From Haplodiscus bocki (taxonomy: Eukaryota), in contig OZ296655.1 in NCBI GenBank assembly GCA_965655095.1, positions 34,844,001-34,908,000 of the forward strand: a stretch of DNA of 64,000 nt. Reading direction: 5' to 3'. Shown in pieces: positions 6,817 through 53,426 of the stretch. The translations under genes and the position numbers were made by a program. The notes under the pieces are model-generated. The model was given only the letters and a program-made list of their open reading frames with translations. It was not told where the DNA came from and made no database searches. The stretch's first letter is position 1, and the number at the start of each line of letters is the position of its first letter.

Positions 6817-6819
6817 AAT

Positions 6820-10385: not shown

Positions 10386-11217
10386 ATGATATATTCATTA
10401 AAAAAATGAATTAAAAGATTCAAATGACTTAGATGACCTACATTCAAAATTAAAACAAGTTAGAGTGGCTGAAAAAATAGGTAAACAACGTTTTCTTTAT
10501 GATGTAAAAGAACTATTCGAGCAGATCACAAAAACATCAACAGATGCAAGTCAAAAATTACTTGAGAACACCAGATTCAACACAGAAGCAATTGATAATC
10601 TGGATGAATCAAATAAAAATGTTACAACTTTAGAGTCAATGATTAAAAAAGGAGTAATTCATTCAATTTTGATTAGATCTATAGCAAAACCGTAAGTACC
10701 AAAAAATAAGAGTCAATTTCGATTGTTAGATGAGCCTGATAGTGATAATTGGAATGATAGGAAAAAGAATGGAGAAAAAAATACATTATACTTTATACCA
10801 TGATAAGATACTTTTTAGAGACACTGGTGTTGTTTTTACGTTGAAAAGAGATTTTCTCTCATTGATAACTGATTATGATTTTAATAAAACACACCCACCT
10901 GATGCGAATCAAATTATTAACTTTCTGGATGACATGAATTTTGATAAACATGCAAAAGATGAAAATTCTAGAGATAAAAACGTCATAAAATACTTTTTGA
11001 AAGAAAGCTATACTAGCATCTGGGTAAAAACTGTTTTTCTTCTAGAGAATCCAAATGAATTATAAGATAGATTAAATTTATTATTGCAGGAGAAACAGGC
11101 TGGAAATAGTTCAAACATATTTAATGCAGAAATTGTTGCTATAAGTGATAAATTATTTGAATACAAATGTATTACTCCAACTCAACAAAAAATATTCAAA
11201 AACTTAATCTTATATAA
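10386..11217 (+). pseudogene. ORF X, second copy
   Basis: Colinear with 930-1769; includes ORFs 10465 and 10730. Confidence 0.6.
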
Positions 11218-11246: not shown

Positions 11247-12394
11247 ATGATTAACAAATCACAAAAACATGCTATTGACAGACCCATTCTAAAAGGTGAT
11301 TAAATTAGATAGACTTCACCTTTGTTTAATCTTGTAAATGGAGATAATGTTCAAATTTTCATTGATATACCCATAGAAGATGGTCATATTTCTCTGAAAG
11401 GTAGTTATCTTGAATTCGATTTTAATGTAACTCATAAAGCTGGTGCTCATACTCGGTATGCAGATGGTGATCATACAAGATTAGTAAATTTAGGTCCTGT
11501 CGCATTATTTAATATATACAGATTGACAAGCTCAAGTGGAAAAGATATTATTATGTTAGAATTTATTTAAAAGATACTTTCGGTTTTGCAGAGCTTCAAG
11601 ATAATTGCACCTACGGCTTGGGATATAAGTTGGCGTTGCAGAGAAATAATGATAATCATGTGTTAAATCATCGACCCGGAGCAACTAATGCAGATAATCT
11701 TGTTTTGGCTGAAAGAGTTTTTATACAGGATCTCAGTTGGTATATCCCACATTATACTCCAAATTAACCCAATCAGAATTTAATGTTAGGACATATTGTA
11801 TCTAAAGCTCCAAATGAAAGATCATATATCAAAAGATCTTCTTATGTGAAAGATGTGACTACTGAAAACAACTGGACAACTGGAACTTTGAGCTGGGTGT
11901 TGGAGATGGTATTGATATACCTATTCATGTAATCGTAGGATTTATGCAAAGGGATCCATTCAATCGAGAACATCAAAATAATGATTCATTTCGTAGACCA
12001 AGTGTAGTAAATGCTGCTCAATGCAATAATGGAACTGAAAACTTCCCGGATGCAGGAGTAAACTTTAAATAAGCTATTGATAAAAATTCTCAAGCATATG
12101 GTGAAATTGTTTCATGTTTCAGATATTTAGCTAAAATAATATTTTACAACCGTATAATACGCAAAAAGATACTGTAACTTCTAATAATTATCCAGATGGT
12201 TACCTTGGTTATAATTTAGTTTTTTTGATATACGTCATCATCAAGATTATAGTTCTGCTCAACCTATCAAAGTAAGGTTCGATTTCAGACCAGCCGTTCC
12301 AGCAGCAACAAATTTATTCGGACATGCTCTTTTATTAACGAATAAATTTGTGTCAATGAGTAGTGATGGACAAAGACAATTTGATTTGATCTGA
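11247..12394 (+). pseudogene. Major capsid protein, third copy with internal deletion
   Basis: IFIDIPIEDGHISLKGSYLEFDFNVTHKAGAHTRYADGDHTRLVNLGPVALFNIYRLTSSSGK. Confidence 0.78.
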
Positions 12395-13242
12395 GTGATA
12401 TTTAATTTTTTCAAAGGTTCTTTATTTTTTTCCGTAGTTAATTCCTTCTTTTTCATAAAGGCTTCGTCATAACCTTCCGGTAAATTCTCAATGCGGTAAG
12501 TCGGTATTGTATCATAAATAGTTTCTGTAATTTCATATAATTCATAAAACGGGTGAGTTTTATCAGATTTCGAAAACTTTTCTTGAAATCTGCTGTTCTA
12601 ACGAGAACCTTTACTTCAAACATTGGTTTTATTTTCTTTCGTTTGTCTAATATTTTCTGGAAAACGAATCTTTCATTCTTCTTCAAACTAGCTTGAATCG
12701 GCGTCAACTTAGAAGATGAATGTATTCTATTGTTATATTGTTTCGTTATTGTAGGTAATTCGTCAATCCAATTGCTTTCACTCTTTTCAAAACTGGCTTT
12801 TCAAATAGATCTCTTTTAGTACAAATAAAGCGTTCGGAAAAACAACTCCTTGGTGTGTATTTCTAGAATGATGTTTAATATTTTTTTGATTCAAGAAAGT
12901 TTGATAAATATTGTTGTAAAGTTCCTTTCGTCTGTCTGTTTCGATTAAATTTGGTTTTCTTCTTCAACTTAAAAGATTCTTTTCAAGAGAGTCTTTTGTT
13001 GTTGTTTGAGCATCTTTATTTTTCAAAGGAACTGTCCATCCAATTTTTGAAAAATTGTCGAATACATCTAAACAACAACTATAACCTGTATTGTTTTCAG
13101 AACGATAATCTCTTAAACCTAAAATGTCTGAACTCCAAATGTTATCAATGTAATAAACGTCTGTTTTGTTTGTTGACTAATTCTTTTTGGGTGGTTTGAA
13201 AAAAATTTCGTTTAAATATATTTTGACTGTTTTCTGTGTCAA
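12391..13242 (-). pseudogene. rve integrase, third copy
   Basis: Colinear with 3043-3896 (KPNLIETDRRKE, ERF, LTPIQASLKKNE). Confidence 0.88.
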
Positions 13243-14218
13243 TTATGTCTGAGAAGATCCAAGAATTTTTCAAATTCTCTAATCTCAGGAAATGTCTCTG
13301 CACCGCGAACAGAATGATCCTATCCTTCGTCGTTGTAATCATATTCGTAAAGATTATCAGGTACTGGATCCCCATATCATTAATTTTAGGCCAAAAATTA
13401 ATTCTGTTCTGGAGAGTATCAATTTGATCACCTTCACCTTGATCTTGAAGACTGAAATTTTTGTTTAAAAAACTTGTGTAAATTGAGCTATCGCAGTACC
13501 TATATAACCATATCTAAAATCAGCATCATCATCATCAGGATCGAGTATGACATAGTCTTTTATCTTTGTAACCATCATAATATATGTTTTCAAATATCAA
13601 CACACCGGTAAATCATCTGCACTTCCAAATATCATCTCCCAAAAAGCTTTCTCAAGTTTAATACTTTCATCTTTAGTTAGTTTTCTTTGTGGAAAATAGG
13701 CGGGCCAAAAACCAAAAACCATTCACTTCTCGATGTATTTGCCTACTAGAACAAAGCTGTTTGTTCCATCGTTCTTCAGTTTTGAACCTGTCACAAATTT
13801 GACAATATATGTCGTTAAAGATTGCCACTTTCGTATTAATATGAATCTTTTCAATTTTTAAAATGTAACGTTTCCACAATTCGTGGTAATTCTGTGACTT
13901 TATTATTAATATCTTCTATTTTTTGTGTATGAGGTTTTCTGTTCGGCTGATTTTTTTTTAGACGTTGCAAATACCACATCTCCATTTTTTCATAGTATGT
14001 TTTTCGTTGATTTGATAAATTATCTTTACTTTCATAGTAAAGTTTTGAACTTCTGTCAAAATTACACTGTTTACATTCTCTTCATTTGTTGTAAAAATTA
14101 TCAAAATACTTTTCAGTATTGCAAATAACACAAGATTTACTCTCCATTTAATTTTTATGTTATTATTGATAAGATATTTTTATTTCGAAAAATTTCTTCT
14201 CGTTAAATGAACAGTGTA

Positions 14219-17200
14219 ATGGACAAAACTCGATTAGCTGAAAAACAAAATAAAGTTCCAAAAGGAAAAGCAATATGAATTAATTAAAAAACAGCTTCAA
14301 TTAGAAAACAAAGGAAATCAATTAAAAAAATAAAACGAAATGAAAGAAAACGAAAAAGTGAATACATAACAGATGAAGATATTGATTTTGGTAGGTTTTT
14401 TTGAATCACCACCCTCCAACAAAGTACATGTTTACAGATTTAATCTACGTGAAATTAGAAACAAAATTTGGCTAGATTATAAAGGTGATTTTGAGTTGAA
14501 TGGATTAATGATTATTGGACTTGTTGAACAGAAAACAAATTTTGAATTCAGAAATATGGATGATTTTGAAAGTTTTATAAATGCAACAGATATTGATTAT
14601 GATAGCGAAGATGTTACGTTTACTGGGTATGTTTATAACTTCAATACACCTCAGTTCAATGTTGTTAATCGAAGTGCTTACGCTGAAGGTACTAATTATG
14701 GGCAAGCTTTTGATGAATATTTTGGACAAAACTGTTATATTCCTACAAGCGTTCAGTGTTTTATAAAATCTAGTAATTATTTCACACAAAAAGATTATGC
14801 AGAAGAACTTTTGACTTTCATTTGAACTGAAAAGTATCGATCAGGAGTAATGGCATCTGGTAGGATTCAACCATTCTGTAGAAACTATTATATCAACATC
14901 GTTTTTTTTAAAGGTAAGGAAATAACTCCTAGAACTATTACAGAAGGAAATAAAACATTGGTCATGCATAATAATCAATTCTGTTTAATTTGGAAATCAC
15001 AAAATATTTCTTTCAATCAAGCAATAAAGGACGAATTAAAACAAAACTTTAAAATTGTTGATGATGTCATATCCGATAAACATGTTAAAATCCGATAAAC
15101 ATGTTAAAAAATTTATTAAAAGTGAATAGAAACCTTAAAAAGTTCAATCTCCATTAACTAATAAAATTTTGCATGAGTTAGAGACTTTTAAGAAAATCCG
15201 AGTTGTTCCATAGTGTAGTTGTATATAAAAACTAAAAAAAGTTCAGGTAAATCTTATCGAGATATATCACTGAAAAATATCAAAATTATCTGAATGATTG
15301 TGTTGTTTTTAAAGGAACTGATTGTATCAATGAAATGTTAGATCATGTTTCATCATTCAAAAAAGGATCTAAAAAAAACAATAACAAGATTGTAGACTAT
15401 AATTTTTTTTCCATAGCTCACAACGGATCTGGTTTTGATAGTTATACTGTATTAGACAATTTACCCCAATAGCGATGTGTCGTTTATTTATTCAGAAACG
15501 GAGCCGGCCTTGTTTCACTTAAAATATCTAATGGATATGTAGATGACAAGAAAAAAACACCCCACTATGTCCATTTCACATGCGGAAGAGTTCTTATTAG
15601 TAGTAGTTTGAAAACAACAGGTACTAGTTACAAATTACAACCAAGTTAATTGAAACAAGAAATCGAACATGATGATATTTATGAAGATAACTGGGAAGAG
15701 AAAGAAAACGAGTGGTTACCTTATGTTAAGAACGACGTGCTATCAATTGTTTTCTGTTATGCTACATATACAACGGGTATGGAATAATTAACTAAGTTTG
15801 GTATGAAAAACTCGTTAACATTACCAAGTTTAGCAAATAAAACTTTTATTAGTTTAAAAGACGAGAATGATTAACCAATTTATACTTTTACCGATCCCTT
15901 TATGAGAAATTTTGTTCGAAATTCAGTAAAAGGAGGTAGATGTAATGCTTTTAATCAACCTTATCAATCTAGATTCCAGATGAAGTGACTAATATTATTT
16001 CAAGAGAATTAGACATTAACGGTAACATATGTGAGATTTAAGATAAGTATTGTGAATTTTTAAACAAGTATAAAAAACTACATGCAAAAAAAGTTGATTC
16101 AAAAGATGATGATTACAGAGATACTAATCAAGAGGAGAAAGAAAAATACATTAACAAAAAGCTTAAAATGGTACCAATTCATGAACAGATGTCCAAGTTA
16201 TATTTGAGTAAAACTCAAGTGGATTTTGATGTTACGTCGTTATAGCCTTCTGCTATGCGGGGTAAAACTTCAGTATATCCTAAAGTAGAAAGTTGGTTTA
16301 ACTTTAAACCACATATGAATGATGTTTATGTAGAAGCATTCAATAATCAAACTCTTAAGCAAGATGGAAACGAGAGTGCAATTTTGAAAATAAAATTTTA
16401 CAATCCACTTGATTTCATTTTTCAACATCTACCAGTTATAGTAAAAGTGAGAAAAAAGAAGGTAATACGATGAGAAATGGATATATCATTGACACTTTAA
16501 CATCAGTTGATATTAAAGAAGTTGTTAACATTGGAGTAAAAGTAATTCCAATTTACGAAGGTCTTATTTATAAAAAAAACCTCAAGAAATCACCATTTAG
16601 AAAAGTTATAGACAAATTGTTTGCTTTAGGACAAGAAAGTATAGAGGACAAAAACGATTTAATGCGAGAGTTAGTAAAATTAATCATGAATAGTGTATAC
16701 GGAGTTCAAAAACGAAAAGATATTAATGAATCATAATATTGTAAACCGGAAACTTGGATGAAAGCAGAATATAATGAAAATTTATTGGTTTATTGGAAAT
16801 TTCCTAATGGAATTATATTGTAAAGATGAAAATAGACAACGGATTAGATGATGATTGTGATATTAAAAATATTTTGCCTCGTCGCATGGGAGCTTTTGTT
16901 TTAAGTAGTAGTAGGCGAAATATGAATAGTTTTATCAGAGAAATACATGGATTTTGCAATAATAATATTCACTATACACACACTAGTAGTATGTATATTC
17001 AAAGACACAGTAGGATGTTTTCGATAAAGTAAATACGAACAGATATTAAAGAATCATACTATTGTAAACCGGAAACTTGGATGAAAACAGAATATGATGA
17101 AAATTTATTGGATTATTGGAAATTACCTAATGGAATTTTTATTGTAAAGAGAAAATAGACGACGGATTAGATGTTGATTGTGATATTAAAAATACTCTGC

Positions 17201-17769
17201 CTGTTCATCTGGGATCTTTTGTTTTGAATAAGAGTGAGCGAATTATGAATAGTTTTGTCAGAGAAATTAATGGATTTTACAACAATAATTATTACTATAC
17301 AGACACTGATAGTAAAAAATTTTAGGATGTTTTTGATAAATCAAACTTGGTTGGAGAAGAATTATGCCAAGGTAAAAACAATTACAAATCAAGAGATATC
17401 TTTTGATCTCTTTACTTAGCTCCTAAAAAAACAGATGTATTAACGACTAATGCATATGGTGTTTTTAAAGAACACAAAACGTTAAAGTGCTTAAAAGATA
17501 GTAACCGGTTATTAGACACTTCTCAATATTTTAAAATGACAGAAGGTAAAAAAATATCTTCGTTCTTGCTTAAAACTTGGAAACAGTCGTTTGATAGCGG
17601 AATAACTATACCTACAAAGATGAGATTTTGTATTGAATGTAATGATTAAAAAAGGTGCAATAAATTTAGTATTCAAATCAAAGAAAATAAACATTTTGAA
17701 GCTAATTTAAACGAATTAAAAAGACACCCCCCTAACGAATATGGTTATATGCTTCCTTATTTTAAATAA
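14219..17769 (+). pseudogene. pPolB, unit A3, reaching the C-terminus, with an internal ~320 bp duplication
   Basis: IAHNGSGFDSY, DFDVTSL*PSAM, KLIMNSVYG, intact motif C YYTDTDS (~17290-17313) and YLAPKK. Confidence 0.92.
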
Positions 17770-17865: not shown

Positions 17866-18350
17866 ATGAATGGTATTATGAACGAGAACCAGTTAACCGT
17901 TGTTAAAAATTATGAAATAAGTAAACCAATCATTCACAGAACAGATTCTATAGTTGATAAATGTTATAGAGATTGTCATAATAAACATTTTCATACAAGT
18001 AATTATAGATGTATATGTTATATTAAATTTACAAGTATTGCTAATAATGGTGTACTTATTTCAACAGTTTCTGATAGAAACATGGGTTTGTATGAATCAA
18101 ATAAAAAATTGAAAATTGCTGGACAAAGAGGTTTTATTTGTTTTCAAATAAACAAACTAACAATAAGAATATATTCACATCAACGATTGATAAACATAAG
18201 TTGTTTTGTGAAATTTCAAATACCCATGTGTCATCTTGTTTGAGTAATCCCACAAAATCTAGAATATATAGAAAAAAACTTTTGCAAAAATATGGAAAAT
18301 CCTTTTCATTTTGTATGTCAGAAAAGGATCAATCATTTAAACTAACAATT
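17866..18350 (+). pseudogene. ORF W, conserved gene downstream of pPolB
   Basis: MNENQLTVVKNYEISKPIIHRTDSIVDKCYRDCHNKHFH is homologous to ORF 52771 (MNENELYVVKEYKFDNPLITEVDSIIDKGFRDC). Confidence 0.65.
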
Positions 18351-26019: not shown

Positions 26020-26300
26020 CATTGGCAAGTTGAATAATTTGAGCATTGCCAAGTTGGCGACACAAATTTCAACATTAGTCAGATGAGTCTGACGAGTATG
26101 GGCGGCAAACAACTTCCAGAATTGGACAAATATCAACAAAGACAAGCAATTTTACAAAGTTGTCGCTACTACTGGCTCCACCTCCCCCTTTTCATTGCCT
26201 CAAGTGCTTTGCATTCAATTCACATATTCAACTCCAATCAATGAGCGTGGTCAACGTTGGCTGTTGCTTTGCGTTGTGGTACAAATAACTTCGATGATGC
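26020..26300 (+). pseudogene. Adenain-like cysteine protease, N-terminal fragment, element B
   Basis: AANNF and STPINERGQRWLLL (a degenerate N..GxHW motif). Truncated against pPolB. Confidence 0.5.
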
Positions 26301-29280
26301 GTCGATTCCTAAAGTTTTCCATATTTTTGCCAAAGCATGGTTTGAATATCAAGTTGGAGAAGTTTTTTTCGAAGTCCGAAGCCGCTTCTTTTCTCATTTG
26401 GTTGATTTTTAAAATGTTATTTCCTAGCTAATTGCTCCGCCTGAACTGCAGCACTTTATGAAGGGTTTTGACTTTTTACCCTTGTTGAGCACAGAACTTT
26501 GAACTTTGAAAGTGGCCAACAAAGTCCGATTTGTTCAATAAAGTTTCCAGTAGTTGTGCAGAAAGAGTTGTTTTTATCCCAAACGACAATGCATAGGAAA
26601 ACAGCCAATCCTGATTGATTACGAATTTCTAAGGCGCGACTGGCAGATCATTGTGAGCTGAAAGCAGAAAAGAATGATAAAATATCTCTACTTCAACTAT
26701 AAAACCAAGGTGGTCAGAAAGGTCTGCAGATAGAATGTCGTTGAGAGTGAAATAAGTCTTCCAAATGTTTTCATCCAATGGAAGCGGTTGCTCCACGGCT
26801 CCAGCATGCAAGGGCATCTCAACAAGGTACGCCCCAAAGACTAACTGTTCATTAGCTTTGAAACTCTGCATATACTTGTTGTTGGTTTTGACAATCCAAA
26901 GTCCACTCATCCCATTGATGCCACTGTGACTTGCATTTTCGCAACAGAAGAGCACATTGATCTCCGGAAACAACTCTACTTCGACTTTTGTTACGATCAA
27001 CATCGCCTTCCAGTTTAGATTGGGAGCGGAAAAAATAAACAGGATCAGGCTCGTAAACTAATAGACATACGTTTCGAAAGTACTCAAAATTATCAACCAG
27101 GAGGTAGACGTCAAGAAAAAAGTGAATGTCATGAAAACGTCTGGAAGTTGTGCAAGAGAAAGATTGTAATTTTTCCAAGCTTTTTGATAGTATTCTTCAT
27201 CGACATCTTTTTTACCCAAAATACTGTTTTTTTCAATGATTGCCAAAAGGAGGAAAAGAGGCTTGAAACTTCGCTAGATTTTCCCAATAGCAGTAAGGGA
27301 ATGCTGTCTTACCTCTCAGTTTTGACAAGTTTTTGTCTGATGAAAGGCTGAGTTTGTATCGAGAACGCTTCAAATTGCTCATCTTTAGTGCTTTATCTAA
27401 CATATCAAGTCCTCGGGACATGAACTGGGAACTGTCCAAAAATCGAATTTTACTGAAGGTAGGCCTTTTGACGCCTTATATGGTTGTATATTCCGAAGTG
27501 TGAGTTTTTACACTGTTTGAAAAGAAAATTTCCTCGGTACGCCCTATTGCTCAAAATAATTCATTTGATCGGAGTTTAAGCTCCTTGAGAACGTGATGTG
27601 CATCGTACCTAGCCAGGTTGAGAATGAAAGCTGGCAAATACATGACAGTATTTACTTTTAGATTGCATTTTGAGTGTGCGAGTCCATATATCTAGCCTGT
27701 CGCGTGGTTATGATGAATGACTGCATCATATTGAAATTTGCTTCTGCATAAATAACATCGTTCTCCACTCGAACTTACGAGCTGATCTCGTTCTTTTGTG
27801 CACAAAACTTTTCTTAGGTCACTGTGTTTTTGATTTGCTCCTTCACAAACAGTCAACCAAACTCTGAGACAATCAAGCTATCTGTATAGACTGTTTTCAC
27901 CACGGTAGAGAAACTCTTTGACAAATCTATTTGATCTGGAGTCAACAAATACTGCACCGAAGCTGGCTTGAAACTGCTTTTTGAAAACGGTGGTTGAACA
28001 ACCTAAGCTGTTGCGCTCGGGAAAAAGCGGGGCTTCTAAATCAGCGTTAACAGCTAAAATACAACTTTGAGTTCTTTGCCAGATGCAAAACTTCATTTTG
28101 GTTCCTGGAAAAGGCATATCAATCCGTAAGGCATATTACCGCCACACACTCTAGAGTAACCCTCAAGTTTTTTCCAACACGGATTGCATGCAGGTTGAAA
28201 AAAAAATTATTTTACTTCTCTTCAAGACCTTCATATTTGATCTACACAATGCATGCTTGAAAATCTGGAATTTGATGATGAGACAAAAGTTGGAACGTTC
28301 TTCCTTTGTTAGGAGCAAAAGATTGATTTTTTCCGCACTGCAAGTTTTTGCCTCCTCCATTGGCACGTAGTAGGAACTCCATTTTCGCGGTATTGGAACA
28401 CTGTACTCGAGAGAATTTTTTCTTGTTCAAATTCAGGAATGCCCTCGATTTTCATGGGCAACTTTTTCGGATCGAATATCAACTCAATCAGCTTGCTCGA
28501 ATAGTTTTTACGAGGCTCGCGGTTCTATTCTATTGGAAACAGGGCAGCGGCAACAGAATAGAAAAAACAAATATCGTGAAAAGAGTTCTTGATGTCGAAT
28601 AGATTTTTTCTGATTTTCTCCATCTTCGGATCTGTTGGAATATAAGACCAGCCAGTGAAGGCCTTGCTTCTGGAAGCTTTCGAGAACACCCTTATCAGCT
28701 TCTCCACCATCCAACCAGTATCATCTGTACAGAATAAATTTACCTGTCGAAATACTTGCCCGATAGTTTCATCCATTCATCATCCTGGAAAAGTCCCACA
28801 AGACGCAAAAGGCTCAAGTTGAAGATCGGAGAGACACTTTGTTCATCAAGATGTTGTGCAAACTGCACTTGAACACATAGCCCCACAGTTGATTAATTCT
28901 GGCACTGAGCTTTTTTTGACCGAAAATGTTTTCAGATGATCCCTATAAACCAGGAGAAAAGCAAAAAAATCAAAATGGTCTACTTCGAGATCTAAACGTA
29001 AAATCTGGAGACGCGAATTGATTGCCGCTTCTTTTTGATACAAAGTTTTGGATCAGTGAAAGTTACACTTCGCCATTCTTTGCATGACTTCCAAAGTGAG
29101 ATTTCTTCGAATGGGTTTTTAAGCAAAAACAAGAGCCCAAAGTCAGCGAGCACGCTCCGCATTGATAGCATTGATACTCATTGGAAAACTTATGAACTGT
29201 GCGCAGATATCTCACGCAATTTTCCACGCAAGCCAAAAACTTGATGACAATGTCCACGTTCAAATTTCGCATAGGATGGT
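26290..29280 (-). pseudogene. pPolB, element B, truncated after motif B
   Basis: N-terminal Cys/His finger, HDICFFYS, HHNHATG..AHSKCN, NLARYDAH, RFLDSSQFM, KTAFPY, QPLP and FEKNFSNLIFKPCFGKNMENFRNR. Confidence 0.88.
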
Positions 29281-38011: not shown

Positions 38012-38092
38012 AGTAGTGTGCAAAAAACAATTGACGCCAAAAGACGCGGACGCACCAAAAAACTAAGTGAAAAACCATGAAAAATTAAACTA

Positions 38093-38236
38093 TATCGAAG
38101 GGGGTACACAGGTATGAAAATTTGATTTTGTAAAAATATTCTTTCATTTATCTATCAATGGGGGTACACAGGAATGAAAATTTAATTTTTAAAAAATTTT
38201 TTTTGAATAGTCTTATCAATGGGAGTACACAGGAAA
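38093..38236 (+). repeat. Left TIR region: three 60-61 bp units (tatcaatgggggtacacagg)
   Basis: Units start at 38093, 38153 and 38214. Reverse complement found at 53333-53412. Confidence 0.85.
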
Positions 38237-38804
38237 AAAATTAAAACATTCATCCACACGCAAAACCATTTCAACGAGCAGGCGGTTATCGAATTGGTTT
38301 TTTACAATTTCATTCATATGGAAAAAGCAGGTGGATATTAAAATATTCATCCACGTAATATTCAAATGATTAGAAAAATATTATGTTGCTAGGCAAAAAA
38401 TCAACGCAGAAACAACTCATGAATTTTTTTACAAGAAAACCACCAAAAAATTTTTTTCATATTTTTCACTTTCACATCAGACGTACACAACAGTTTTCAC
38501 ATTGGACTATCACAGCACACAACCCACAATCAACCATATTCGAAGATACGAGAAGAATATCACACACGATGATTATCAACTATCCACGAAACCCATACAA
38601 CGAAAACGACTCAAGATCATGAAGATGGTGGTATCATGGAAACGATTTAACAACAGGATAGAATGAGATTGTGAGGAACAGAGTTTATTCGAAGACATCG
38701 TGTGTTATGTTTTATATTTGATCGTGATTGTGATATCACATATGTCAGTTTTAGAATTTAATCTGAGTTAATATGTTTTTTTTTTGGGGGGGGGGGTTTA
38801 TATA

Positions 38805-41359: not shown

Positions 41360-41821
41360 ATGAATAACACTTTTTCTCTACAACAAATATCCAGAACTGG
41401 CAATCTTGACAGTAATTTGATATCTCGACAATACAAACGAAAATTAATGGCTGATTTTATGCGGATGAAATATGAAAATCCAAAACTGAAGCAATCTGAA
41501 ATAGCAAATCAATTAGGTTACTCTTCTTCTACTTTACAAAGATACAGAAATGATTAAAGTATGCTTTCACCGTACAGAATTAACCCAAATAAAACCAATA
41601 AACAAACAAAAAAGCCCTCAAATACTAATTTTGACAGCAATTCACATCGCGAACATGATGTTAAAAGACCTCAAATGACCTCAAATGACTTTAAAACAAC
41701 TCAAACAAACATAAAATCAAATAGAAAAAACAAAAATATTCTAAAACCTGGATCTGTGTTTGAGAATATTGAAATTAATGATCAACTTTTAGATGAAATT
41801 TTGGATATTAACGAAATATAA
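41360..41821 (+). pseudogene. Putative helix-turn-helix DNA-binding protein
   Basis: PKLKQSEIANQLGYSSSTLQRY has an HTH pattern. One in-frame stop at 41555-41557. Confidence 0.6.
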
Positions 41822-42586
41822 ATGGATTTTAGCAATGCAAATAATCTCTACTGAAGGAACAGTAAGAAACGATACAATGGTTGATAAAAAAATTTTAACA
41901 ATCAATCTTTATCAACACAAGCCACAAAGGGTGCAACAATCAGTTAGCGTGATGCCTGCTATTAAAAAAGCCCTATCACTACTGGGCGACATCATTGAAT
42001 TCTCCACCGAAAATGATGCTTTAAAAACAAAACAGGCTCTGTTGATGAGAAATGGTTACAAGAATCTAAAGCGAAACTATTAAAACAGTTCGATGATGAG
42101 AAAAGAGCAAATTTAATTATGTCCAGATTGAAAAAACAAATGGAAAAACATTAAATAAATGGCCTATATATCTCATAATAAATTATGGTAAAGTGAATTC
42201 GATAATATCATTTTTAGAAGAGATAAATTACAAGATTTAAATATTAACCAAAAAGAACTCGAAGTACACGATACTTATAAAAAAATAAAAAATTAACAAA
42301 AAATGTTGAAGCTATTATTGACATAGGTGTTATAAACAAAGTTTTTTTAAATGGAAAATTATTAAAAACAAACGGTCAGTTATCAATATTAGAAAAAGTT
42401 TACAACGAAATTAAATCACAATACAACGAAGAATCAGTAGAACAAATTTTAATTCGAAGAGCTGTGAAAACACTATCCAAATTTCGTACGATAAGGGTTT
42501 AATTGATAATTATACCAATGTTGATATAGTTTCAGAAGGTTTTTTGTTTACCACAAGACGTAGACCTGATTTATCAGAGCAAGTAA

Positions 42587-43005
42587 ATGATGACATTCAA
42601 TGATTTTGTTCATAAACACAATTTAAAAAATAAAGCAACATCAAATGTAAAATTTTATCAAATCCGTTGTTGTTTTGGTTTGAACAATGTTGGTATATAT
42701 CTATGAGACGGACCTTTTCCATTTGGTATAGGAATAGTCAATTTACATCCTTCAAAACGAACACATTGGGTTTGTTATATAAACGAAAAATATTTCGATA
42801 GTTACGTTTGTGCTCCTCTTAAAAAACTATCTAAAATTATTATAAAACGAAATGGATATTGTTTATACTCTGAATATCAAACTCAAAAAATGATAGTTTT
42901 TGTGCAATTTATTGTTTATATACAAATTAGTTAACAAAAGTGATAGGTATTGATTTTAAATCTGCTGTTTTGAATTTGTTTTATCAAAGAATTTCTAGAA
43001 TATAA
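42587..43005 (+). pseudogene. Adenain-like maturation cysteine protease
   Basis: GIVNLHPSKRTHWVCYINEKYFDSY..QTQK..DSFCAIYCLY shows His, Asp, Gln and Cys in catalytic order. Confidence 0.85.
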
Positions 43006-43197
43006 ATGACATTAAGAAAAATAACAATTTATAATACTGTTAGATATTTTTCAATAAGTGAAAAGATTAAAAGAAAGAGATACTAAACAAAAAACATTAA
43101 ACAGTGGTTCACTTCCTTGTGAACAAAACAAAAATATATCACAAAACAATAAAAGTTTCCTGAAAAAAGTGGCAGCACAAGGATTTGGAGTAATTAA

Positions 43198-44275
43198 ATG
43201 AAGAATGAATTGTTACTTTCAATTTAAAAAAGTACTGATACGTTGATTGAACAAACAAAAACAAAACCACAAGAGACTCTTGACTTAAAAATGAATAAGC
43301 AAATGCAAACTTTTTCGTTTACTCCTCCAATTAATTTGGTTGAAGAAGGTAATTGGTTACTAACAGTGACTTCTTTGAAGCAACAAACTCTGTTTATATT
43401 ATAACTAAAGAAAACAACTCTTTTTCATTAACTACACCTTGTCAACAATGGAACTCTGAATCGGCCGAAAAGAAACTATTGACGAACTAAATAAATTATT
43501 AGACCTTAGATCTGAAATTGATATTGATTTAAATGTTGAACAAGTTAGAAAAAAAGGGATAATTTTAATAAAAGACAACTCTTTATCCAGACTTGGTTCT
43601 TTTAAAATTGAAGTACTTGAAGACTCAAAAAATGCAAAATACAATGACCTTGAAGGTATTGTATATAGATTCCAACTAACATATGATTAAAATATAGATA
43701 TATTAGACCTGAAACATATTCCAACAACGACTGTAGGATATACTCCACCACCTGGTACGTAAGAAATGATTGATATTAGTTTTATGTTGAAGTCTTTTCT
43801 TCCTAAAGAGGTAAAAGTAAATTTCACAATTCATGATGTTAAACTAAAATGAAATTTAACCACCAATAGAACAATAAAGTTAACGAAAAAGTCTTTTCTT
43901 ATACAATACTTGGTTCTATCGAAAGTCATTCAGGAGAATTCAGTGAAATTCCAGGTTTTGTTCAATTAATACTAGGTAATCATAAAAATGATAAACCTCC
44001 TAACATTAAGTATTGATAAAGTTCAACTGAAATGTGATTGTGTTAATGGATCTTTTGTTAATGGTACCGAGAACCTATTTTATACTCTTTTGCTTGGTCT
44101 TCGCCACCCGGGCTTAAAAAATACAATGAAACTAGAATCAAACTTTTTGAAAAGGTAAAAAAATCTACTCTACCTCATGTCGGTTTTTATCTAGAAGACA
44201 TTGATTATAAAGCAGTTGATTTTAACGGTGAAGCAATAAGTTTTACTTGCCAACTGATCAAATTTTTACAAATAG
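43198..44275 (+). pseudogene. Minor capsid (penton) protein 1
   Basis: FSFTPPINLVEEGNWL; IDKVQLKCDCVNGSFVNG..PILYSF..FYLED..VDFNGEAISFTCQLIK. Confidence 0.78.
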
Positions 44276-45398
44276 ATGAACTTAAATATGATTAGACCTA
44301 AAAACAAAACAGAAAATTTATTAATTTCAATAATTAAAATTGGTGAAAAGATCATAGAACATACTCATAGAAAACCAAAAGAAGCATTGGAATTCAAACT
44401 TACAAAATCCAGAGAAACATTCCATTTCAACCCACCAGTTGAGGTTGAAGAAAAATGGATGATTGGTTTAATAGATCTAGAAGCTTACAATACTATTTTT
44501 AAAATAACGGAAGAAAATAATAAATTTGGACTTTAAACAGTACGTCTTGAAGATGAGTTTTCATACACTCAATTGAAAATCAAGGTCGCAAAAAAACTTG
44601 GTCTTTCAGATATCTCACTCGAGGATCTTTTACACGAAATACGAGGACCAAATAGTAAAAAAATTTATAGAAAACCATAAACAGAAAAAAGTCATACTGT
44701 TGGTTATTATTAATTATTAAAGGATTATGTTCATTCATCATTTCAAGATTCTGAAATTTATCATGGAATTGTACTTGGTTTAGATGAAAATGATATTCAA
44801 TTAAGTTTAAAACAATATAATTCAAAATTTACCACATACAAATATTCTCCCGGCGCATCCTTTTTTAAAGATCTATCTGAACTTCTGTCAAGAGTTTTTC
44901 TTAAAAACAAGATTGAAGTCATAGGAGGATTACAAACAAATCGTGAAAATTATAAATCTAATTCAATTATCATCGATAGTGATAACGTTTCCTTGATAAC
45001 TAGATTGAGACTAAACCCATGGTTCAATGTTTTGAGGTTTGATAAAAAGTCGTTTTTTAATACAATCTTAGGTTTTACTCCATATTGGGATTATAAAGGT
45101 AATAAGTACTTCAGTGAGAAAAATAGAAATTTGAGTAAAATAAAAAAAATCATTTAAAATGTGATGTTACTGATGGTTCAGTAGTGAATGGAAGACAAGA
45201 TCCAATATTGTACAGTTTTGTTTTAGATAAACCCAGCAGTTATAAATTGTTTTCCACAACAGAAACATTACACTACAAAAAAAATAAATAAGTTTGTTTT
45301 GAATACTATATCGTTTTTTTTTAGAAGATGATAATAACGAAGAAGTTGATTTTAATAGAGAAACGTTGACATTTACATTACAAATGACTCAAATTTGA
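44276..45398 (+). pseudogene. Minor capsid (penton) protein 2
   Basis: FHFNPPVEVEEKWMIGLIDLEAYNTIFKITEENNKF; HLKCDVTDGSVVNGRQDPILYSFVLDKP..LEDDNNEEVDFNRETLTFTLQ. Confidence 0.78.
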
Positions 45399-45499
45399 TC
45401 TATTAAAAGAGCTTTCAAAAATTTAAAACTAATAGTTTTTGTGTTGGTCAAAAACACTACAGTGGTACAAAGAACATTTTTGGTGAGATAACTTTTGAT

Positions 45500-45825
45500 A
45501 AAAAGACTGGTAAAGGTATTAATTTATTAAATGGACAATGTTCAGTTTGTAATAGAAAAAAATCAATGATTGTTAGTGATAATACTATTCAAGCTGATGG
45601 ATTAGGTAGTTTATTCGAAAATCTGTGAAGAACATCTACCAAAGCTGGTTAAAGATTAGCTACCAATGTATTAAAAAATCCACGTAGAGTTTTGGAAACT
45701 ACATCAAACATTGTAACAGCGGCCGCAACTAAAAGCCCAAAAGCAGTTTTATCATCATCATCTGAAGTAATCAATTTTTACCACACAGGAAAAGGGCATT
45801 ATCGAGGCAAATTTGTATTAATTAT
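45500..45825 (+). pseudogene. Small protein with CxxC and amphipathic region, possibly virion core
   Basis: GQCSVCNRKKSMIVSDNTIQADGLGSLFENL..LATNVLKNP. Confidence 0.4.
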
Positions 45826-45834
45826 ACTATATAA

Positions 45835-46360
45835 ATGGAGCGAAAAACGGAAAGATTATACCCAAGCGCACCATTATTATAATTTTTTAATTCAAAACAA
45901 AGACTACAAAAGAAAATAAATGATGTTAACAGATTTAATAACTCAATTACCAACATTAAAGAAATGATCACATACTTCAAAGACAAAAACCATAAATGAA
46001 AAAAGAAATACAAAAACTATAAAACTCTAAACACAGTTTTAGAAGCAGTAGACTCAATCGTTATCATCGGAGCAACTTCTTTAACTCTATCGATTACTGG
46101 TGTAGGTTCGACTTTTTTACCAATTTCAGCTGGTATTGCTTGTACTCTATCATTAGGTAACAAAAAATTACATAAGTTAATCATAAACAAATACAACAAT
46201 TACAAAAAACATTCTGGAAAAGATCAACAAACTATTAATTTTTTGACAAATTATACAGAAAAACTTTACAAGATAATGTAATTGATAAAAAAAACTCGAA
46301 AGTTTGTGTAATCTTTTTACTAATTATATTGATGAAAACAAAAATGAATCTTTTTTATGA
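45835..46360 (+). pseudogene. Predicted membrane protein with N-terminal YPSAP motif
   Basis: MERKTERLYPSAPLL, a basic helix, then hydrophobic VIIGATSLTLSITGVGSTFLPISAGIACTLSLG. Confidence 0.55.
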
Positions 46361-46708: not shown

Positions 46709-47440
46709 ATGAATCGAATTTGTAACAGTTGTGACATAGAAATAGACGAAATTAACTACTTGAAAGGTTGAACTGTTTGCAAAAGTTGTTACAACAAAAG
46801 TAGAAGAAAAAACCAACAACCAAACATCTGTAAGATCAACAATAACAATGGCAACAACCCTCATGTTTCAACGTATGAAAATCACGCCTATGTTGTTTTT
46901 GGCCCAAGAAACGTTGGTAAAACCTTTTAAATGCTCAAAATGCTAAAAAAAAACAAATAATAAAAGACCTATTCAAATAATAACCTGATCTCCAAAATCA
47001 ATAACCAAATTATGAAACAAGTAATGAAATTATGCCAATAAAAAAATACAAAGGATCAATTGTAATTTTTGACGACATGTTTGGAGCTCGAAACAGTTCT
47101 CAAAAAGATAAATTCTACACGGGAAGTAGACATGAAGTTTTAAGTGTGCTTTACGTTAGCCAGAGCTATTTTGGTTTACCGAGACAAAGCCTTAGAAATA
47201 ACAGTAATAGATTAAAACTGTATTATAAAAATTAAGAGATGTTCAAAGTATGTACTATGATATCGGAGCTTATGGTATGAAATATGAGAAGATAAAGAAA
47301 TGTGTCATAAGGCTTGGAGTGGAAGGTGTAACTATCTTTGTTTTGATATGACTAAAAATAAAAATGAAGGCAATCATCGTATTTTGAAAGAAAGCAAAAC
47401 CACATATATTGAATGCAGTCCCAAAACTGGACCTTTTTAT
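46709..47440 (+). pseudogene. A32-type packaging ATPase with N-terminal C4 zinc ribbon, element C
   Basis: CNSC..CKSC, Walker A GPRNVGKT, Walker B IVIFDD and GSRH..YVSQSY..LRNNSN. Confidence 0.9.
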
Positions 47441-47448: not shown

Positions 47449-48137
47449 ATGTTGTATCCAATTGAAAGCAAAGAAGAGTTAGAAAAATTAAACGAGTTAG
47501 TCCCGTTACAAAATCAAGTACAAGAAGATAGATTACAAGATAAGCTTGGTGAGCAGAACTTTCATGAAGACGTGAAAAAAGTATTTGAACCTGTCATTAA
47601 TTCTATTATTGATGTCTCTGAAGAGGTAACGAAAACAATAACAGAAACTTCAAAAATAACAACAAAGCACTAGAAAACTTAAACAACAAAATTCTAGAAA
47701 TAGTGAATGATAGAGGTAAAATAGCATTCTATTTGATGTCTCCTTTATCTAAAATCACTAATCCAGAAAATATTACTCAATTCGAATTAGTAAAAGATTC
47801 TAGCTCAAATAGAGTCAATGATTTGTTAATACACAATACATTTCCAAATATTTTACACGACACTTTGTTAACTTTTCGTGATACAAGTAAAGTATTCGAA
47901 TTAAAAGGAGATCTTTTGAAAATTATAACTAGTAAAAACTATAATGTTGATCTCGCTAGTTTATCGGATAAGAAATTAATGGATAATTTCGCAAAAAGAA
48001 TGAATTTTAATATAAAAGCACAAGGTAACAGATCAACTCGAGATAGAACTCTTATAAATTTACTTAAATCACCAGTTTAACAGTTTCTGCTTCAGTTGTT
48101 TCAAAAACAATAAATTTAGCATCTGATCCTGACGAAT
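47449..48137 (+). pseudogene. ORF X homologue, C-terminally truncated
   Basis: LQDKLGEQNFHEDVKKVFEPV and FRDTSKVFELKGDLL align with ORF X of element A. Confidence 0.65.
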
Positions 48138-48139
48138 AA

Positions 48140-48459
48140 TTCTATTCCGCGATCACTTTCGATTAAATTTGGTTTTCTTTTTGAACTTACCAAAATATTA
48201 TCGAAAAAGTCCATTTTTGTCTGACCATTTTTTATTTTTGAGAAGAATTGTCCAACCAAATTTACTGAATTTGTCGATTACTACCAAAAACCTATCTGTA
48301 TCCTCTGATATTTTCAGGACCGTAATCTTTTATGTCTAATATATCTAAACTCCAAATTTCATCAGAATAATAAACATCTGTCTTGTTTGTGGGATAATTC
48401 TTTTTAGGTGGTTTGCTATAAGTTTCGTTTGAAAACATTTTAATTGTTTTCTGAGCCAT
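48140..48459 (-). pseudogene. rve integrase, N-terminal half
   Basis: YSKPPKKNYPTNKTDVYYSDEIWSLDILDIKDYGPEN..VVIDKFSKFGWT..RKPNLIESDRG. Confidence 0.88.
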
Positions 48460-48846
48460 TTATGAATTAGTAGTTTTTATTATTTCAATAGCTTCTGTTA
48501 ATTTTTCTTACTTTTTATTGAGTTCTTCTCTTTGTTGTTTATATATTTTTCTTTCATATTTTTTATTTGGCTGGTTTAATTTCGACTTTGCAAGTAATGG
48601 ATCTCTATTTTTTTCATAATGTAACTTCCGTTGATTTGATAATTTATGTTTATTCTCATAGTGACGTTGTAAACTTCTTTTAAAATTACACTAATTACAT
48701 TCTCTATATTTGTCGTAAAAATTATCAATACTTTTTTCAGTATTGCAAATAACACAAAGTTTACTTTCTGTTTAAATATTATGTTTTCATTTTGTTTTCA
48801 TTCATTTTACTTCAATAAATTAATACTATATAAATAGAGACGCAAA

Positions 48847-51800
48847 ATGGAAAAGAGCCGCACATGTGATGTGTGTAATGTTGATGTTCACAGAGCATCT
48901 ATGCAAAAACATCTAAGAAGTAAAATAACTTTTAGAAAATGAAAAACAAAATCAAATGATTATACCAGAATGGTTATTTAAAGAAGAGCAAACACCTATT
49001 TAAAAAAAAGTTAAAAAATTATATAACCCTAAAACACTAAAACAGATAGCCAGAGAGAATACTAAAAGGAATGATAAAGAATTACAAAAAGAATTAGCTA
49101 TGAAGGTGATTAATCCATAATATTTCTTTAATAAAAAATTAAAAGATGGTTTCAAAAAAAATTAGAAAGTCACATTATTAATCATGCGAATTCCATCTTT
49201 ACCATTACACAAAAGTATACAGATTTCGGAATTGGAACAAACTATATTAGAAAATTTTTAAAAGAGAAGTCTACTATTTACGCTAGATTATTAAATCAAT
49301 ATAAATTTAAAAATATAAAATTTTCAGCTAGCTTTTATACGAATAATGAAGAAGATCAATGACGTGATGAAACTGAATTGTTTATTAGTTTGAATGTTAA
49401 TCATAATTTAACAGAATCCGATTTTGATAAAATTGACGTTAAATCTCAATTAGAACATCACTTTCGAATTCAAGAAACAAAGGAATCAGGCTGGATTATT
49501 GATAAAACTAATTCAATGAAAATAAGATTTTATAAACCTGATGAATTGAATGGTTCGTGTTATGTTAAAAATCTATTGAGATCAAACGCTATCTTAAATA
49601 TACAAAATAGTGATAAATATTGTTTTTTATGGTCAGTATTAGCTTATTTACATCCTTGTGAAAACAGTCATCCATCAAGAGTAAGAAATTGTATACAAAA
49701 TTTTAATGAAATAAAGAATGAGGGCTTTGATTTTACAAATGGATTCGGATGTAGTGTGTTGCAAAGATTTGAGAAATTAAACAATTTATCTATAAACATT
49801 TTTGAATTAAAATTTTATCAAGATAAAAAGAAATGGAAACTTAATTTATTTCCTACTGAGATTAGTAAAAGTGAATCAGAAAGAGTTGTAGACCTACTAA
49901 TCTGTGGAAATCATTATGCTCCCAATAAAAAATTAATTGTATTTTAAGGAGATCATCACAAAAATGTTGTATCTAGACGATATTAAATTTCATATACAAG
50001 TGAAAATATGTTAATGATATAGAAACCAAAATGTGAAAATAATGATATAACTACTCTCAGAACTTCATCTGAATCTCATCGTCATTGGAAGGATCATTTT
50101 CATAAAAATCTTTTATATTTTAGAATATATGCAGATTTCAAAGCTGATAATGAAAAAGATAATTCTAGTGTAGGTAATAAAACAACTAAAATTTATAAAC
50201 AAATACCAGTTCTTAATGGTTATCGTATAGAATCTGAAGTGGAAGATGTTTTACAGAGTGGTTATTATAAATCTCATTTAGGTTATAATAATGTAGATTG
50301 GTTTGTTAATGAGGCTGCAAGCTTAGAACATAAGATGAATTTTAAACTTTAAAGGTACTCAAAAAAGATATCATATTGACAGAAGAAGATGAAGAAGATT
50401 TTAAAAATAATAATATTTTTCGATTTTGTGAAAAAAAATTGAATCTGATAAAGTTTAGGTCCTTGTCATTTGACTGGTGAATACAAAAGTCCAGCTCATA
50501 GTAATTGTAGTATAAATGCTACTCAAGATCAGAGTAATATTATATCCTTTATATTTCACAATTTTAGTAATTATGATTGTCAACAGTTTTTTAAAAAGTT
50601 AGTTGAAAAAAAAGAATGATAAAGTAAAATTTAAAACTATATTTAAAACAGATGAAGAACATATTTCAATCAAGTAAGGTTGTATTAGGTTTATAGATAG
50701 TTATAGATTCTGATCAAGTAGTTTAAATAAATTGGTTAAAACTTTAGTTGATAATATTCATAAAACATTGAAAGATTTCAATGAAAAAATTGTTGATAAT
50801 GATGAAATATTAAACCTTGTTAATGAAATAAAGTTATTGATTGAAGAAGTTAGGTAAATTATTGATTCATTTAAAGATTTAAAGAAAGTTTGTCAAAAAG
50901 AAATTAGAAAAAAAGAAGCTTTACTTAATTATATGAGTGAAAACGCTCTTAAAATATTAAAAACAGAAATTCCTGACAATAAGTGGAAGTATTTAACTAA
51001 GAAATTAGCATATCTATATGAATATTGTAATAGTCTTGATGAATATCAAAAACCTGTTGACAATTTAAAAAAAAAGATTTCTCAAGTAAATTGAAGAATA
51101 AATGTCCTGATAATGAAGAGATAGAACGAACAAAACAAATTATCAAAAGATTCATTATTAAAAAAGGAAAAGAACTAACACAACTATAATTAAAAAGTGA
51201 TGTTTTAGTACTTGCATTGGTTTTTGAGAAGTTTATAAAAGTATCAGTGAACGAATTTGGTATTAATCTTCTATATTGTGTTAGTTTACCAGGTTATTCT
51301 TGGCAATGTGGATTGAAAAAGACAGGAATAAACTTACAAACACTCCAAGATAAAGATTAAATTTTAACATTAGAAAATAAAAATAGAGGAGGTATAAGCA
51401 GTGTTTTGGGAGATGGTTATTTAAAATCAGATGAAAATAAAATGGTGATTTATATGGATGCTACTAATTTATATGGACATTCTATGATCCAACCGTTACC
51501 TTATGATGAAATTGGGATGTGGCATGCTCATCCAGATCTTTATATGAAGAAATCGGAAGAATTTTTAGTTACTCCATATGATAGTGATATAGGATATTTC
51601 ATTGAAGTTGATTTAAAATATTCTGATATTATGAAAGCAAAAACAAAAGACTTTCCATTTTGTCCCGATAACAAAATTATTCACAAAGATAAATAAAATG
51701 AATAAATGAAAAAGATAAAACCTGAGATTTATACAAAAGCTAAGAAATTAACATGTGATTAGACTGATAAGAAAAAATAATTGGTTCAATATAGAATTTT

Positions 51801-52695
51801 AAAAGTTTATGTTAAACATGGAGTGATAGTGGACAAAATTCATGAAATAATTTCATGTAAACAAAGTAAGTGGTTGGATAATTATATAAATTTTAATACC
51901 CAGCAGAGAAATAGGGCTAGAAAAGGTTTTGAGAAAGACTTCTATAAATTACCTAATAACGCATTTTATGGAAAAGCAATGGAAAATGTACGAAATCGTT
52001 TGAGATTAGAATTTATTAAAAAACATGAATATAAGGAATTTATAAAACAACAGTCAAAAATAAAATTCAACGGAATTCTTGAACCATTTATGAAATTGTG
52101 ATAGTTATCTTTTTAAGAAAAATGAAGTTCTTATGAGTAAGCCAATTTTTTTAGGATTTGCTGTGTTACAATTAAGTAAATTACATATGTATGGAACATA
52201 TTATGATAAATTACAACCTTATTTTAGACAGGAAAATATGACACGGATGAATTCATATTAAGTGTAAAATTAAACGGTATTATCACAGACTTAAATAATT
52301 TGGAAGATAATTTTGATTGCACTAATTTAGATAAAAATCATGGAATAATAAGTATTAAAAACAAAAAAGTAATCGGTTTTTTCAAAATAGAAACTGCTGA
52401 AAAAAATTGGATTGATGAATTTGTTTGTCTAGAAAGTAGAATGTATTCGCTTAAATGTGAAGATGATAATAGAAAAAAATTGAAGGGTGTTTCTAAATCT
52501 CAATCAAAACATATTAAATTTGAAGAATATAAAAATTGTTTAGATGGTAAAAAATATCAAGAAAAATGTGAAACTTATATTTTAAGATCTGTTAATCATG
52601 AAATGTATCTTCAACAATTAAAAAGATTAACATCATCTATTTTCGATGACAAACGATGTTTTATAAATGAAACTGAAAGTATACCATGGAATTGA
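48847..52695 (+). pseudogene. pPolB, element C (zinc finger, putative terminal-protein/vOTU region, EndoVII-like insert, exonuclease, polymerase)
   Basis: DKYCFLWS..NHY, CHLTGEYKSPAHSNC, FHNFSNYD, RFIDSYRF, KSDVL, RGGISSV, YMDATNLYGHSMIQPLP, KDFYKLPNNAFYGKAMENVRNR, GFFKIE and DDKR. Confidence 0.93.
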
Positions 52696-52770
52696 AGTTA
52701 TTTTAATCGTCTCAAATTATCATAGTTTTATTGAAAAAGATTTTTCTTTCAAAAAATTTGTTACGAATTA

Positions 52771-53250
52771 TTGAATGAAAACGAATTATATGTTGTGAAA
52801 GAATACAAGTTTGATAACCCACTCATTACTGAAGTAGATTCTATAATAGATAAAGGTTTTAGAGACTGTCTTAAAAGTTATTTTCATAAGTTTAAGTATT
52901 ATTGTATCTGTGATAATAAACTTACAAATATCACTGATAATGAATTGTTTAATTTGACAATTAGTGTTAAAAGCATGAATTTGTATGAATTAAAGAGAAA
53001 ATTAAAAAATGCTAGACAAAATGAATTTATATTTAACCAAATAAACAAACTAACAATAAAAATCTGTTCGCTTTTACAATAAATATATATAAATAAGTTA
53101 TTATTTGAAATTGCCAATGCCGATGTGTCATAGACAAACTTTTAGAAAAATTTCCCAAAATCTAGAATTTTTATATAACTTTTGCAATGATAATAGAAAT
53201 AATCCTTTTCATTTTGCATGTTGGAATTACTTTTTAGACAATCAGAACAT
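52771..53250 (+). pseudogene. ORF W
   Basis: Homologous to 17866-18350, including the PMCH and NPF.F.C motifs. Confidence 0.65.
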
Positions 53251-53332: not shown

Positions 53333-53412
53333 TTTCCTGAGTACTACCATTTATAAAACCATTCAAATTATTTTTTACAAAAAAAATTTCATCTTGTGTA
53401 CCCCCATTGATA
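53333..53412 (-). repeat. Right TIR remnant of element C
   Basis: Reverse complement tatcaatgggggtacacaagatgaaattt..tttgaatggttttataaatggtagtactcaggaaa matches 38153-38236. Confidence 0.85.
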
Positions 53413-53426
53413 AAAAAAGGAAAAAT

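Follow-up and report, generated by a model that had tools for sequence, protein, structure and literature searches.

Two deeply divergent polymerase types occupy one slot in Polintons of Haplodiscus bocki, and an intein gene stands free beside one of them

Polintons are known to exchange their protein-primed family B DNA polymerase (pPolB). In nematodes, Jeong et al. 2023 (PMC10748475; this and the other sources given by identifier are cited from their accessible parts) described replacement between pPolB1, which clusters with the widespread invertebrate Polinton pPolBs, and pPolB2, which forms a clade with Trichomonas, oomycete and mollusc pPolB2 proteins and often carries an HNH or VSR insert. 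The accessible parts of that study left open why pPolB is exchanged, and ongoing exchange could not be tracked there. Alpha and Beta adintoviruses show AB and BA pairings of hexon and PolB (bioRxiv 10.1101/2024.03.25.586562), and polisuvirus replicases are mosaic, with homing endonucleases suggested to mobilise them (bioRxiv 10.64898/2026.10.13.758929); the word 'intein' occurs in the accessible text of neither preprint. Intronless homing with marker exclusion is established for the free-standing SegF, SegG and MobE endonucleases of phage T4 (Edgell et al. 2010, PMC2988022), free-standing GIY-YIG/HNH genes have been reported in polinton-like viruses (PMC12220804), and Krupovic et al. 2024 suggested that the nuclease inserts of polinton pPolBs derive from intein invasions. 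Our literature search, incomplete in coverage, turned up neither an intein described from a Polinton pPolB nor a complete intein that had moved out to become its own gene. Here we describe a 64,000-nucleotide stretch of the Haplodiscus bocki assembly GCA_965655095.1 (contig OZ296655.1, positions 34,844,001 to 34,908,000; G000:C8:34844001-34908000; hereafter the window), whose Polinton elements A and C carry unlike polymerases, termed A-type and C-type, and their relatives across the 1.5 Gb assembly. Polymerase exchange in Polintons and adintoviruses is already known; the new part is an intein arrangement that lies outside the window.

In our sequence comparisons the two types occupy the same slot in the same gene order, polymerase type has mixed repeatedly with chassis lineages, and both types recur in a second family, D. 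A standing polymerase dimorphism in two families is well supported, and the window pair A/C is a weak example of this larger system. We think it probable that the two types, sharing one slot in a high-copy Polinton family, have been reassorted among its members by homologous recombination, with perhaps a homing conflict in addition.

The elements are Polintons because they combine pPolB and an rve integrase (PF03175, PF00665), a double-jelly-roll capsid and a packaging ATPase in both families (PF21738, Pox_A32; element C itself has no capsid gene), terminal inverted repeats (TIRs) and target duplications. Both ends were resolved in two of six relatives examined, 17,840 and 18,384 bp long and so within the 13-25 kb usual for Polintons. 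Their TIRs measure about 490 bp, they end in AGTAGT, in keeping with the AG-repeat ends of the group, and their target duplications, of 6 bp, fall in its 5-8 bp range; the element around locus L074 has TIRs that are 99% identical and a target duplication. One D-family open reading frame (ORF) matches Peptidase_C5 weakly (E 0.006, below the cut-off), and the candidate protease and minor capsid genes of the A/C family gave no Pfam match.

An earlier note, made from the window alone, had described A and C as one chassis with a swapped polymerase, and much of its description held. Every motif that it named was found at its element (in A, AHNGSGFD 15416, KGGRC 15929, DFDVTSL 16222, KLIMNSVYG 16677, YTDTDS 17296 and LAPK 17416; in C, FHNFSNYD 50554, RGGIS 51385, DATNLYG 51457, NNAFYGKAMENVRNR 51955 and DDKR 52645), and the two elements share an alignable ATPase, X, integrase, Z and W, the first two as protein only (37-42% and 33% amino acid identity, with no DNA-level alignment for either) and the others as DNA (75%, 79% and 71% identity). 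The deep split that it proposed between the polymerases was borne out: the A and C pPolBs gave no match to each other (best E 0.46), the best values between unbroken database proteins of the two types were E 0.32 (P0004/P0348) and 1.8e-4 over 72 amino acids (P0077/P0430), and a profile-profile comparison gave 19% identity at a probability of 95%. The two types did not cluster together in a tree of 21 natural proteins: the C-types stood apart from a group of A-types, Macrostomum and metagenome proteins, the A-side rows having been chosen as A-type relatives. The named relatives of the A-type are Macrostomum and Lottia proteins; the accessible tables of PMC10748475 list no pPolB2 for Platyhelminthes, the home of Macrostomum. 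The A-type fold, predicted with a pLDDT of 86.5, matched remote pPolBs in BFVD at only about 10-19% identity, the C-type model was of low confidence (pLDDT 40), and scans of IMG/VR with the A-type polymerase and the capsid protein gave no matches. The EndoVII-like insert was weakly detected in C-type copies (Endonuclease_7 at E 5.6e-5 and 1.5e-4, just under the Pfam cut-off), with a nuclease-like CHLTG at 50464 in element C; the A-type proteins scanned had no Endonuclease_7 match and no nuclease insert by Pfam. The nearest Atlas clusters of the C-type are eukaryotic, mostly arthropod, and combine Endonuclease_7 with DNA_pol_B_2 (score 0.97). Pfam named just one polymerase piece among the short ORFs of the window. 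A C-type subtype (L069, L070, L076, L080; P0348 versus P0430) is without about 60 mid-gene codons (window 50750-50940). The features of the window are listed below.

9978..10367, + strand: element A packaging ATPase, 3' part (tblastn with the unbroken ORF of L074; Pox_A32/AAA in L074); the 5' part is severed by a tandem-duplication junction
10408..11191, + strand: element A gene X, a divergent allele common to L097 (sequence comparison and tree)
11247..12388, + strand: element A double-jelly-roll major capsid gene, frameshifted (PF21738, E 4e-12 in L070)
12397..13242, - strand: element A rve integrase, broken (PF00665 in L070)
13936..14194, - strand: element A gene Z, a small Cys-rich protein, divergent from pPolB (weak His-Me finger match in L127, E 0.024)
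14207..17769, + strand: element A A-type pPolB, broken (PF03175, E 6.6e-11)
17866..18324, + strand: element A gene W (sequence comparison)
26284..28761, - strand: element B pPolB remnant, remote C-class (25-34% identity to the C-type)
38012..38249, + strand: element C left end (AGTAGT) and start of TIR (same TIR as in the complete element around L074)
41360..46357, + strand: element C upstream genes (an HTH protein, two genes of 137-144 amino acids, two paralogous genes of ~360 amino acids, one gene of 137 amino acids, gene U)
46709..47437, + strand: element C packaging ATPase with an N-terminal Cys motif, broken (sequence comparison)
47449..48136, + strand: element C gene X, ending at the capsid-removing deletion (sequence comparison)
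48138..48459, - strand: element C integrase, 5' third (sequence comparison)
48480..48800, - strand: element C gene Z (sequence comparison)
48780..48846, + strand: element C Z-pPolB intergene with a decayed palindrome and TATAAAT (A-type similarity stops here)
48847..52695, + strand: element C C-type pPolB, broken, no intein (EndoVII-like insert around 50380-50540)
52727..52775, + strand: element C second copy of the palindrome/TAAAT, in front of W (sequence comparison)
52783..53233, + strand: element C gene W (sequence comparison)
53333..53426, + strand: element C right TIR, inner part (sequence comparison)

Element A, at about 9.9-18.3 kb, is the final one of several tandem partial copies, 84-88% alike. 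Its pPolB was correctly placed by the earlier note at its end and not at its start, which is the start codon at 14207 and not 14219; motif C reads YTDTDS, an internal duplication lies near 17031-17364, and no intein gene follows. The resemblance claimed between the polymerases of C and B extends to membership of the same C class, at the low identity given above. A reading of A and C as sister elements was not supported: the X and capsid genes of A sit on a long branch with a single other copy, L097, distant from the X of C. Element C has lost its capsid gene and ~60% of its integrase through a ~2.2 kb deletion at 48137.

Searches with the Z-pPolB junctions found dozens of copies of each type at 74-86% identity, from which we retrieved the best 19-20 other copies per junction, 40 in total. 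All 20 loci for each junction had only the expected polymerase type and a single gene order, which in all 40 copies was U, ATPase, X, capsid, integrase(-), Z(-), pPolB and W wherever the genes were in view, and the ATPase and X of most A-type copies were nearer to those of window C than of window A. Identity between A-type and C-type copies is 0.54-0.87 until the TATAAAT before the pPolB start codon and 0.29-0.56 beyond it, and similarity returns at the W promoter. The breakpoint mapping suggested in the earlier note thereby found gene-sized boundaries at these two places. A-type and C-type genes cannot be aligned with each other, so any crossover would fall in the shared flanks, and clean edges need no cassette machinery. 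A palindrome-TAAAT motif precedes both pPolB and W (a relaxed palindrome pattern gave 134 matches vs 56 in shuffled sequence, over 42 stretches); a general linker model was rejected because the palindrome stands before pPolB and W only and not before every gene. We also observed this palindromic AT-rich motif with its downstream TAAAT(G) before the intein gene described below, as before pPolB and W (window 48780-48846, 52727-52775), and it presumably resembles promoter words, both early and late, of the large DNA viruses that replicate in the cytoplasm. Optional cargo, including the free-standing intein gene, sits between the pPolB stop and the W-side motif in other copies; at least six different optional cargo genes of 76-201 amino acids, several of them Cys-rich, were seen in this pPolB-W slot (L181-L240). 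A third deeply different ATPase allele, about 40% identical to the others, lies inverted in the ATPase slot at L070:798-1526.

Polymerase type changes repeatedly along the trees of the chassis genes. On DNA trees of unchanged copies (39-41 rows) we counted nine changes for integrase, eight for capsid, eight for X and five for W. With 71 copies, 18 changes were observed on the capsid tree vs 20.4 after shuffling (65 of 500 shuffles were as low), 15 vs 19.3 for X, 14 vs 20.3 for integrase and 8 vs 15.7 for W; given the branches with starred support, no fewer than 12 changes are needed for capsid and five for W. Identity in cross-type pairs reaches 97% for X and 94% for capsid, and the chassis genes are mosaic among themselves. 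Because the linkage of polymerase type is strongest to the adjoining W and absent at the capsid gene, its decay looks as in a recombining population.

The second family offers an independent chassis. Family D has integrases 51-62% identical to those of the A/C family and a different gene order; an A-subtype, P0077 (59%), was on this chassis in 20 of the 20 loci retrieved, and intein-bearing C-type loci were found on it too. Each gene separates by family with full support. Within-family spread is similar for both polymerases (0.14-0.18), and between-family distances fall from 0.38 for integrase through 0.34 for the A-type to 0.20 for the C-type. Because the A-type distance resembles that of integrase and the C-type distance is much smaller, the A-type would have split along with the chassis and the C-type would have crossed later, and we lean towards a resident A-type and a later spread of the EndoVII-bearing C-type over both families. 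A small gene just upstream of the D-family A-types (L292:5418-5948, L297:5418-5948) resembles the N-terminal part of the C-type at 35-36% and is possibly an exchange remnant.

A C-type database protein, P0382, contains Hint and LAGLIDADG domains at YMD|TDS. A genome search for this intein gave at least 118 matches, from 117 scored among 445 candidates. Of 80 intein loci classed, 45 were separate genes following an A-type, 34 lay within a C-type (33 places, as L101 is L143, all at YMD|TDS in motif C), one was truncated and none lay within an A-type. The domains are PF14890, PF14528 and PF05204, with Ser1, a TEDH block, a terminal His/Lys/Ser-Asn and Thr at +1. No intein was present in window elements A and C or in the 40 junction-picked copies. 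The free-standing gene is a separate ORF of ~360 amino acids that starts about 100 nt past the A-type stop codon and has, at all 45 places, its own palindrome promoter, its own ATG and a few C-type flanking codons. Its ends vary (TDSY-stop, TNSFVLL-stop, TDSFVL-stop, TDSLN... among L102:1468-2560, L127:7468-8553 and 43 others), which suggests several rearrangements of the 3' junction. The free genes do not form one clade (AU p 0.029), as one in-polymerase copy nests among them, and they are young, with end branches mostly under 0.03. The ratio pN/pS is 0.28 for shared variants and 0.55 for singletons, and of its two LAGLIDADG motifs one is unchanged in 38 of 45 copies and the other in 42 of 45; judged from the purifying selection on shared variants, the gene is selected. 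No diversity valley was seen around it (ratios 0.40-0.88 along the gene), and contigs of four sequencing runs touched the polymerase-intein stretch in short pieces only, none spanning it. Relatives with 40-45% identity lie at this position both in other pPolBs and in PolBs of the RNA-primed kind from viral metagenomes. Inteins of the same family (43-45%) were also seen at motif C of pPolBs from other assemblies (P0463, P0466, P0467, P0469), so pPolB inteins are not confined to this genome.

The site itself differs with the presence of this gene. All 45 A-types with a linked free intein gene have Cys (DCD for DTD) at the first codon after the insertion point, and none of 21 unlinked junction-picked A-types does (19 Thr, one Asn, one unreadable). 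Exact-pattern searches found 114 DCDS and 490 DTDS A-type sites in the genome; among the first 30 loci of each in genome order, the free gene followed nine DCDS sites, six of them repeats of earlier loci, and no DTDS site, while another cargo gene followed both alleles (24 of 51 DTDS, 31 of 69 DCDS). Linkage to DCDS peaks from -10 to +11 nt around the site. A patch of this length is about the size of a LAGLIDADG site. Cys at +1 would still permit splicing, so the change from DTD to DCD points to DNA recognition. The DCDS patch occurs on two A-subtypes with switch points at most 60 nt from the site: in L113 and L122 the subtype switches at most 60 nt before it and remains of donor type to the gene end, and in L194 the patch covers only about 60 nt on each side. 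The free gene is scattered over the A-type tree, with 15 changes within DCDS. Similar codons recur elsewhere. DCDS or DTDA stands at the same place in 6 of 20 D-family A-types, intein-free C-type proteins keep YMDTDSF in only 26 of 110 readable cases, and in a third C-type cluster the intein-bearing copies are YMD|TDSF (7 of 7) and the intein-free ones DCDS or DTDA (6 of 6). Among C-type database proteins a motif B FG variant is about as frequent as DTDG at motif C. The short deletion immediately before motif C in the element C pPolB (about 52230) was considered as a cut scar and rejected as one of many indels.

These observations suggest a mechanism in two layers. The A-type and C-type would be reassorted by homologous recombination in shared flanking genes and not by one historical swap; on top of this, with roughly even odds, a homing-endonuclease conflict acts at motif C. 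The LAGLIDADG intein of the C-type would have been copied, with a few C-type flank codons, behind a duplicate of the W promoter beside a DCD A-type. Once free-standing, it would be expected to cleave polymerase genes that lack protection in elements replicating alongside, and donor-templated repair would transfer the immune patch and at times also the endonuclease gene, as in intronless homing. The arrangement of a free-standing intein beside a changed site is seen directly in the sequences, and its function is what we infer from them. A more far-reaching version, which we regard as tentative, is a homing war: the invading C-type brought the intein, the resident A-type took it up as a free-standing endonuclease next to an immune allele and turned it into a gene drive, and this drive, predicted to cut rival polymerase genes of either type and to swap whole polymerases by repair through the flanks, drove convergent DCDS, DTDA and DTDG and keeps both polymerases polymorphic in two families. 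The free gene cannot have started the dimorphism, because the dimorphism is older.

Several points weigh against this mechanism. The junction-picked copies are a sample biased by similarity, a type change on the capsid tree records any crossover between the two genes and does not prove an exchange of the polymerase only, and the family D C-types in the distance test were all intein-bearing. At motif C, 21 of the 30 DCDS copies are without the endonuclease gene, and a single capture may lie behind the linked copies, so that Fisher's p of 0.002 is too favourable. Patchwork structure extends through the whole A-type gene, with the motif C window no more discordant than several others, a reverse patch in five copies and a second linkage peak at -842. 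The DCDS patch is closer to the intein flanks than the DTDS alleles are (8.5+8.9 vs 6.3+7.2 of 12), so immunity would rest on two central bases. In the genome, 890 exact YMDTDSF sites remain vs 417 YMDCDSF, motif B varies too among C-types (YG to FG in 47 of 118), and one remote intein-free allele, P0608, retains DTDS. Little can be read into the lack of the free gene next to C-types, since five A-slot cargo markers were likewise unseen in 54 C-type loci.

Some of these points would fit a simpler account, in which DCDS is no more than a neutral marker and the free-standing gene a passenger, taken up a single time by a young DCDS lineage with which it travels, with ordinary recombination accounting for the whole pattern. 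Only 580 nt separate motif C from the intein gene, and the many DCDS copies without it, the gene-wide mosaicism and the youth of the free inteins agree with this account, which we consider possible though doubtful. It does not sit easily with purifying selection on a gene that has no host protein to splice, with a gene scattered on the A-type tree yet never after DTDS, unlike neighbouring cargo, or with the recurrence of DCDS or DTDA at the same codons in D-family A-types and C-types. A post-insertion origin of the mosaics, through ectopic recombination or gene conversion between chromosomal copies and not in viral replication, is improbable. The hundreds of exact sites per allele are ample substrate, element A carries post-insertion tandem duplications and an extrachromosomal form was not seen, but L113 and L122 share one recombinant junction while differing elsewhere, selection acts on shared variants and much less on singletons, the free gene is equipped at 45 places with a promoter and start of its own, and the L074 element retains nearly identical TIRs and its target duplication. 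A single ancient cassette-style replacement followed by separate A and C lineages, as the earlier note had it, would explain the sharp edges at the start codon and W promoter and the fact that W still follows polymerase type (8 changes vs 15.7), but is very improbable given the forced changes on the capsid and W trees and a second family with both types.

Other repeats were observed in the window. The right half of element A is tandemly repeated at 84-88% identity (window 1-18400), with one more copy immediately before the window begins. A direct repeat of 300 bp (95%) lies at the left end of element C (37711-38012) and again at 54809-55111, 1.4 kb past its right end, and window 56309-64000 holds a long inverted repeat with arms of at least 3.2 kb, 94-99% alike, that continues off the window end.

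In this genome, hundreds of copies with both alleles in two families render recombination among Polintons measurable and imply that related elements co-replicated. Most of the interest lies in the free-standing intein and the changed site beside it. Together they offer an enzyme that can be named, a predicted site, and natural alleles predicted to be sensitive or immune, which opens the proposed link between homing endonucleases and replicase mosaicism to a simple assay.

Set beside the nematode Polintons (PMC10748475), the system described here likewise has two very distant pPolBs (16% identity there, about 19% here) on similar chassis, interspersed on chassis trees, and an apparently incoming polymerase with a nuclease insert (HNH or VSR there, EndoVII-like here). 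Unlike in the accessible parts of that study, a single genome here holds both types in abundance in two families, the probable invader is the one with the EndoVII-like insert, and the system includes an intein together with a free-standing endonuclease. As in adintoviruses and polisuviruses, replicase and capsid modules reassort; the comparisons in the accessible texts on those viruses cross lineages, and the endonuclease role is there a hypothesis for PolA/AEP genes. The intein shares with the motif C inteins of family B polymerases, which presumably bear the label 'pol-c', the YxD|T site, Ser1, the TEDH block and the terminal His/Lys/Ser-Asn; it differs in residing in a Polinton polymerase of the protein-primed kind, and over half the copies sampled lie outside any polymerase. 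A parallel to the arrangement as a whole is offered by T4 (PMC2988022, in its accessible parts), where an endonuclease gene also lies hundreds of bases from its site, here a predicted one, in a neighbouring essential gene, and where conversion is local at the site and at times extends to the endonuclease gene. Unlike the GIY-YIG or HNH genes of T4, the putative homing gene described here comprises an entire intein, with both Hint and LAGLIDADG parts and stub exteins of the rival polymerase, and is carried by endogenous Polintons.

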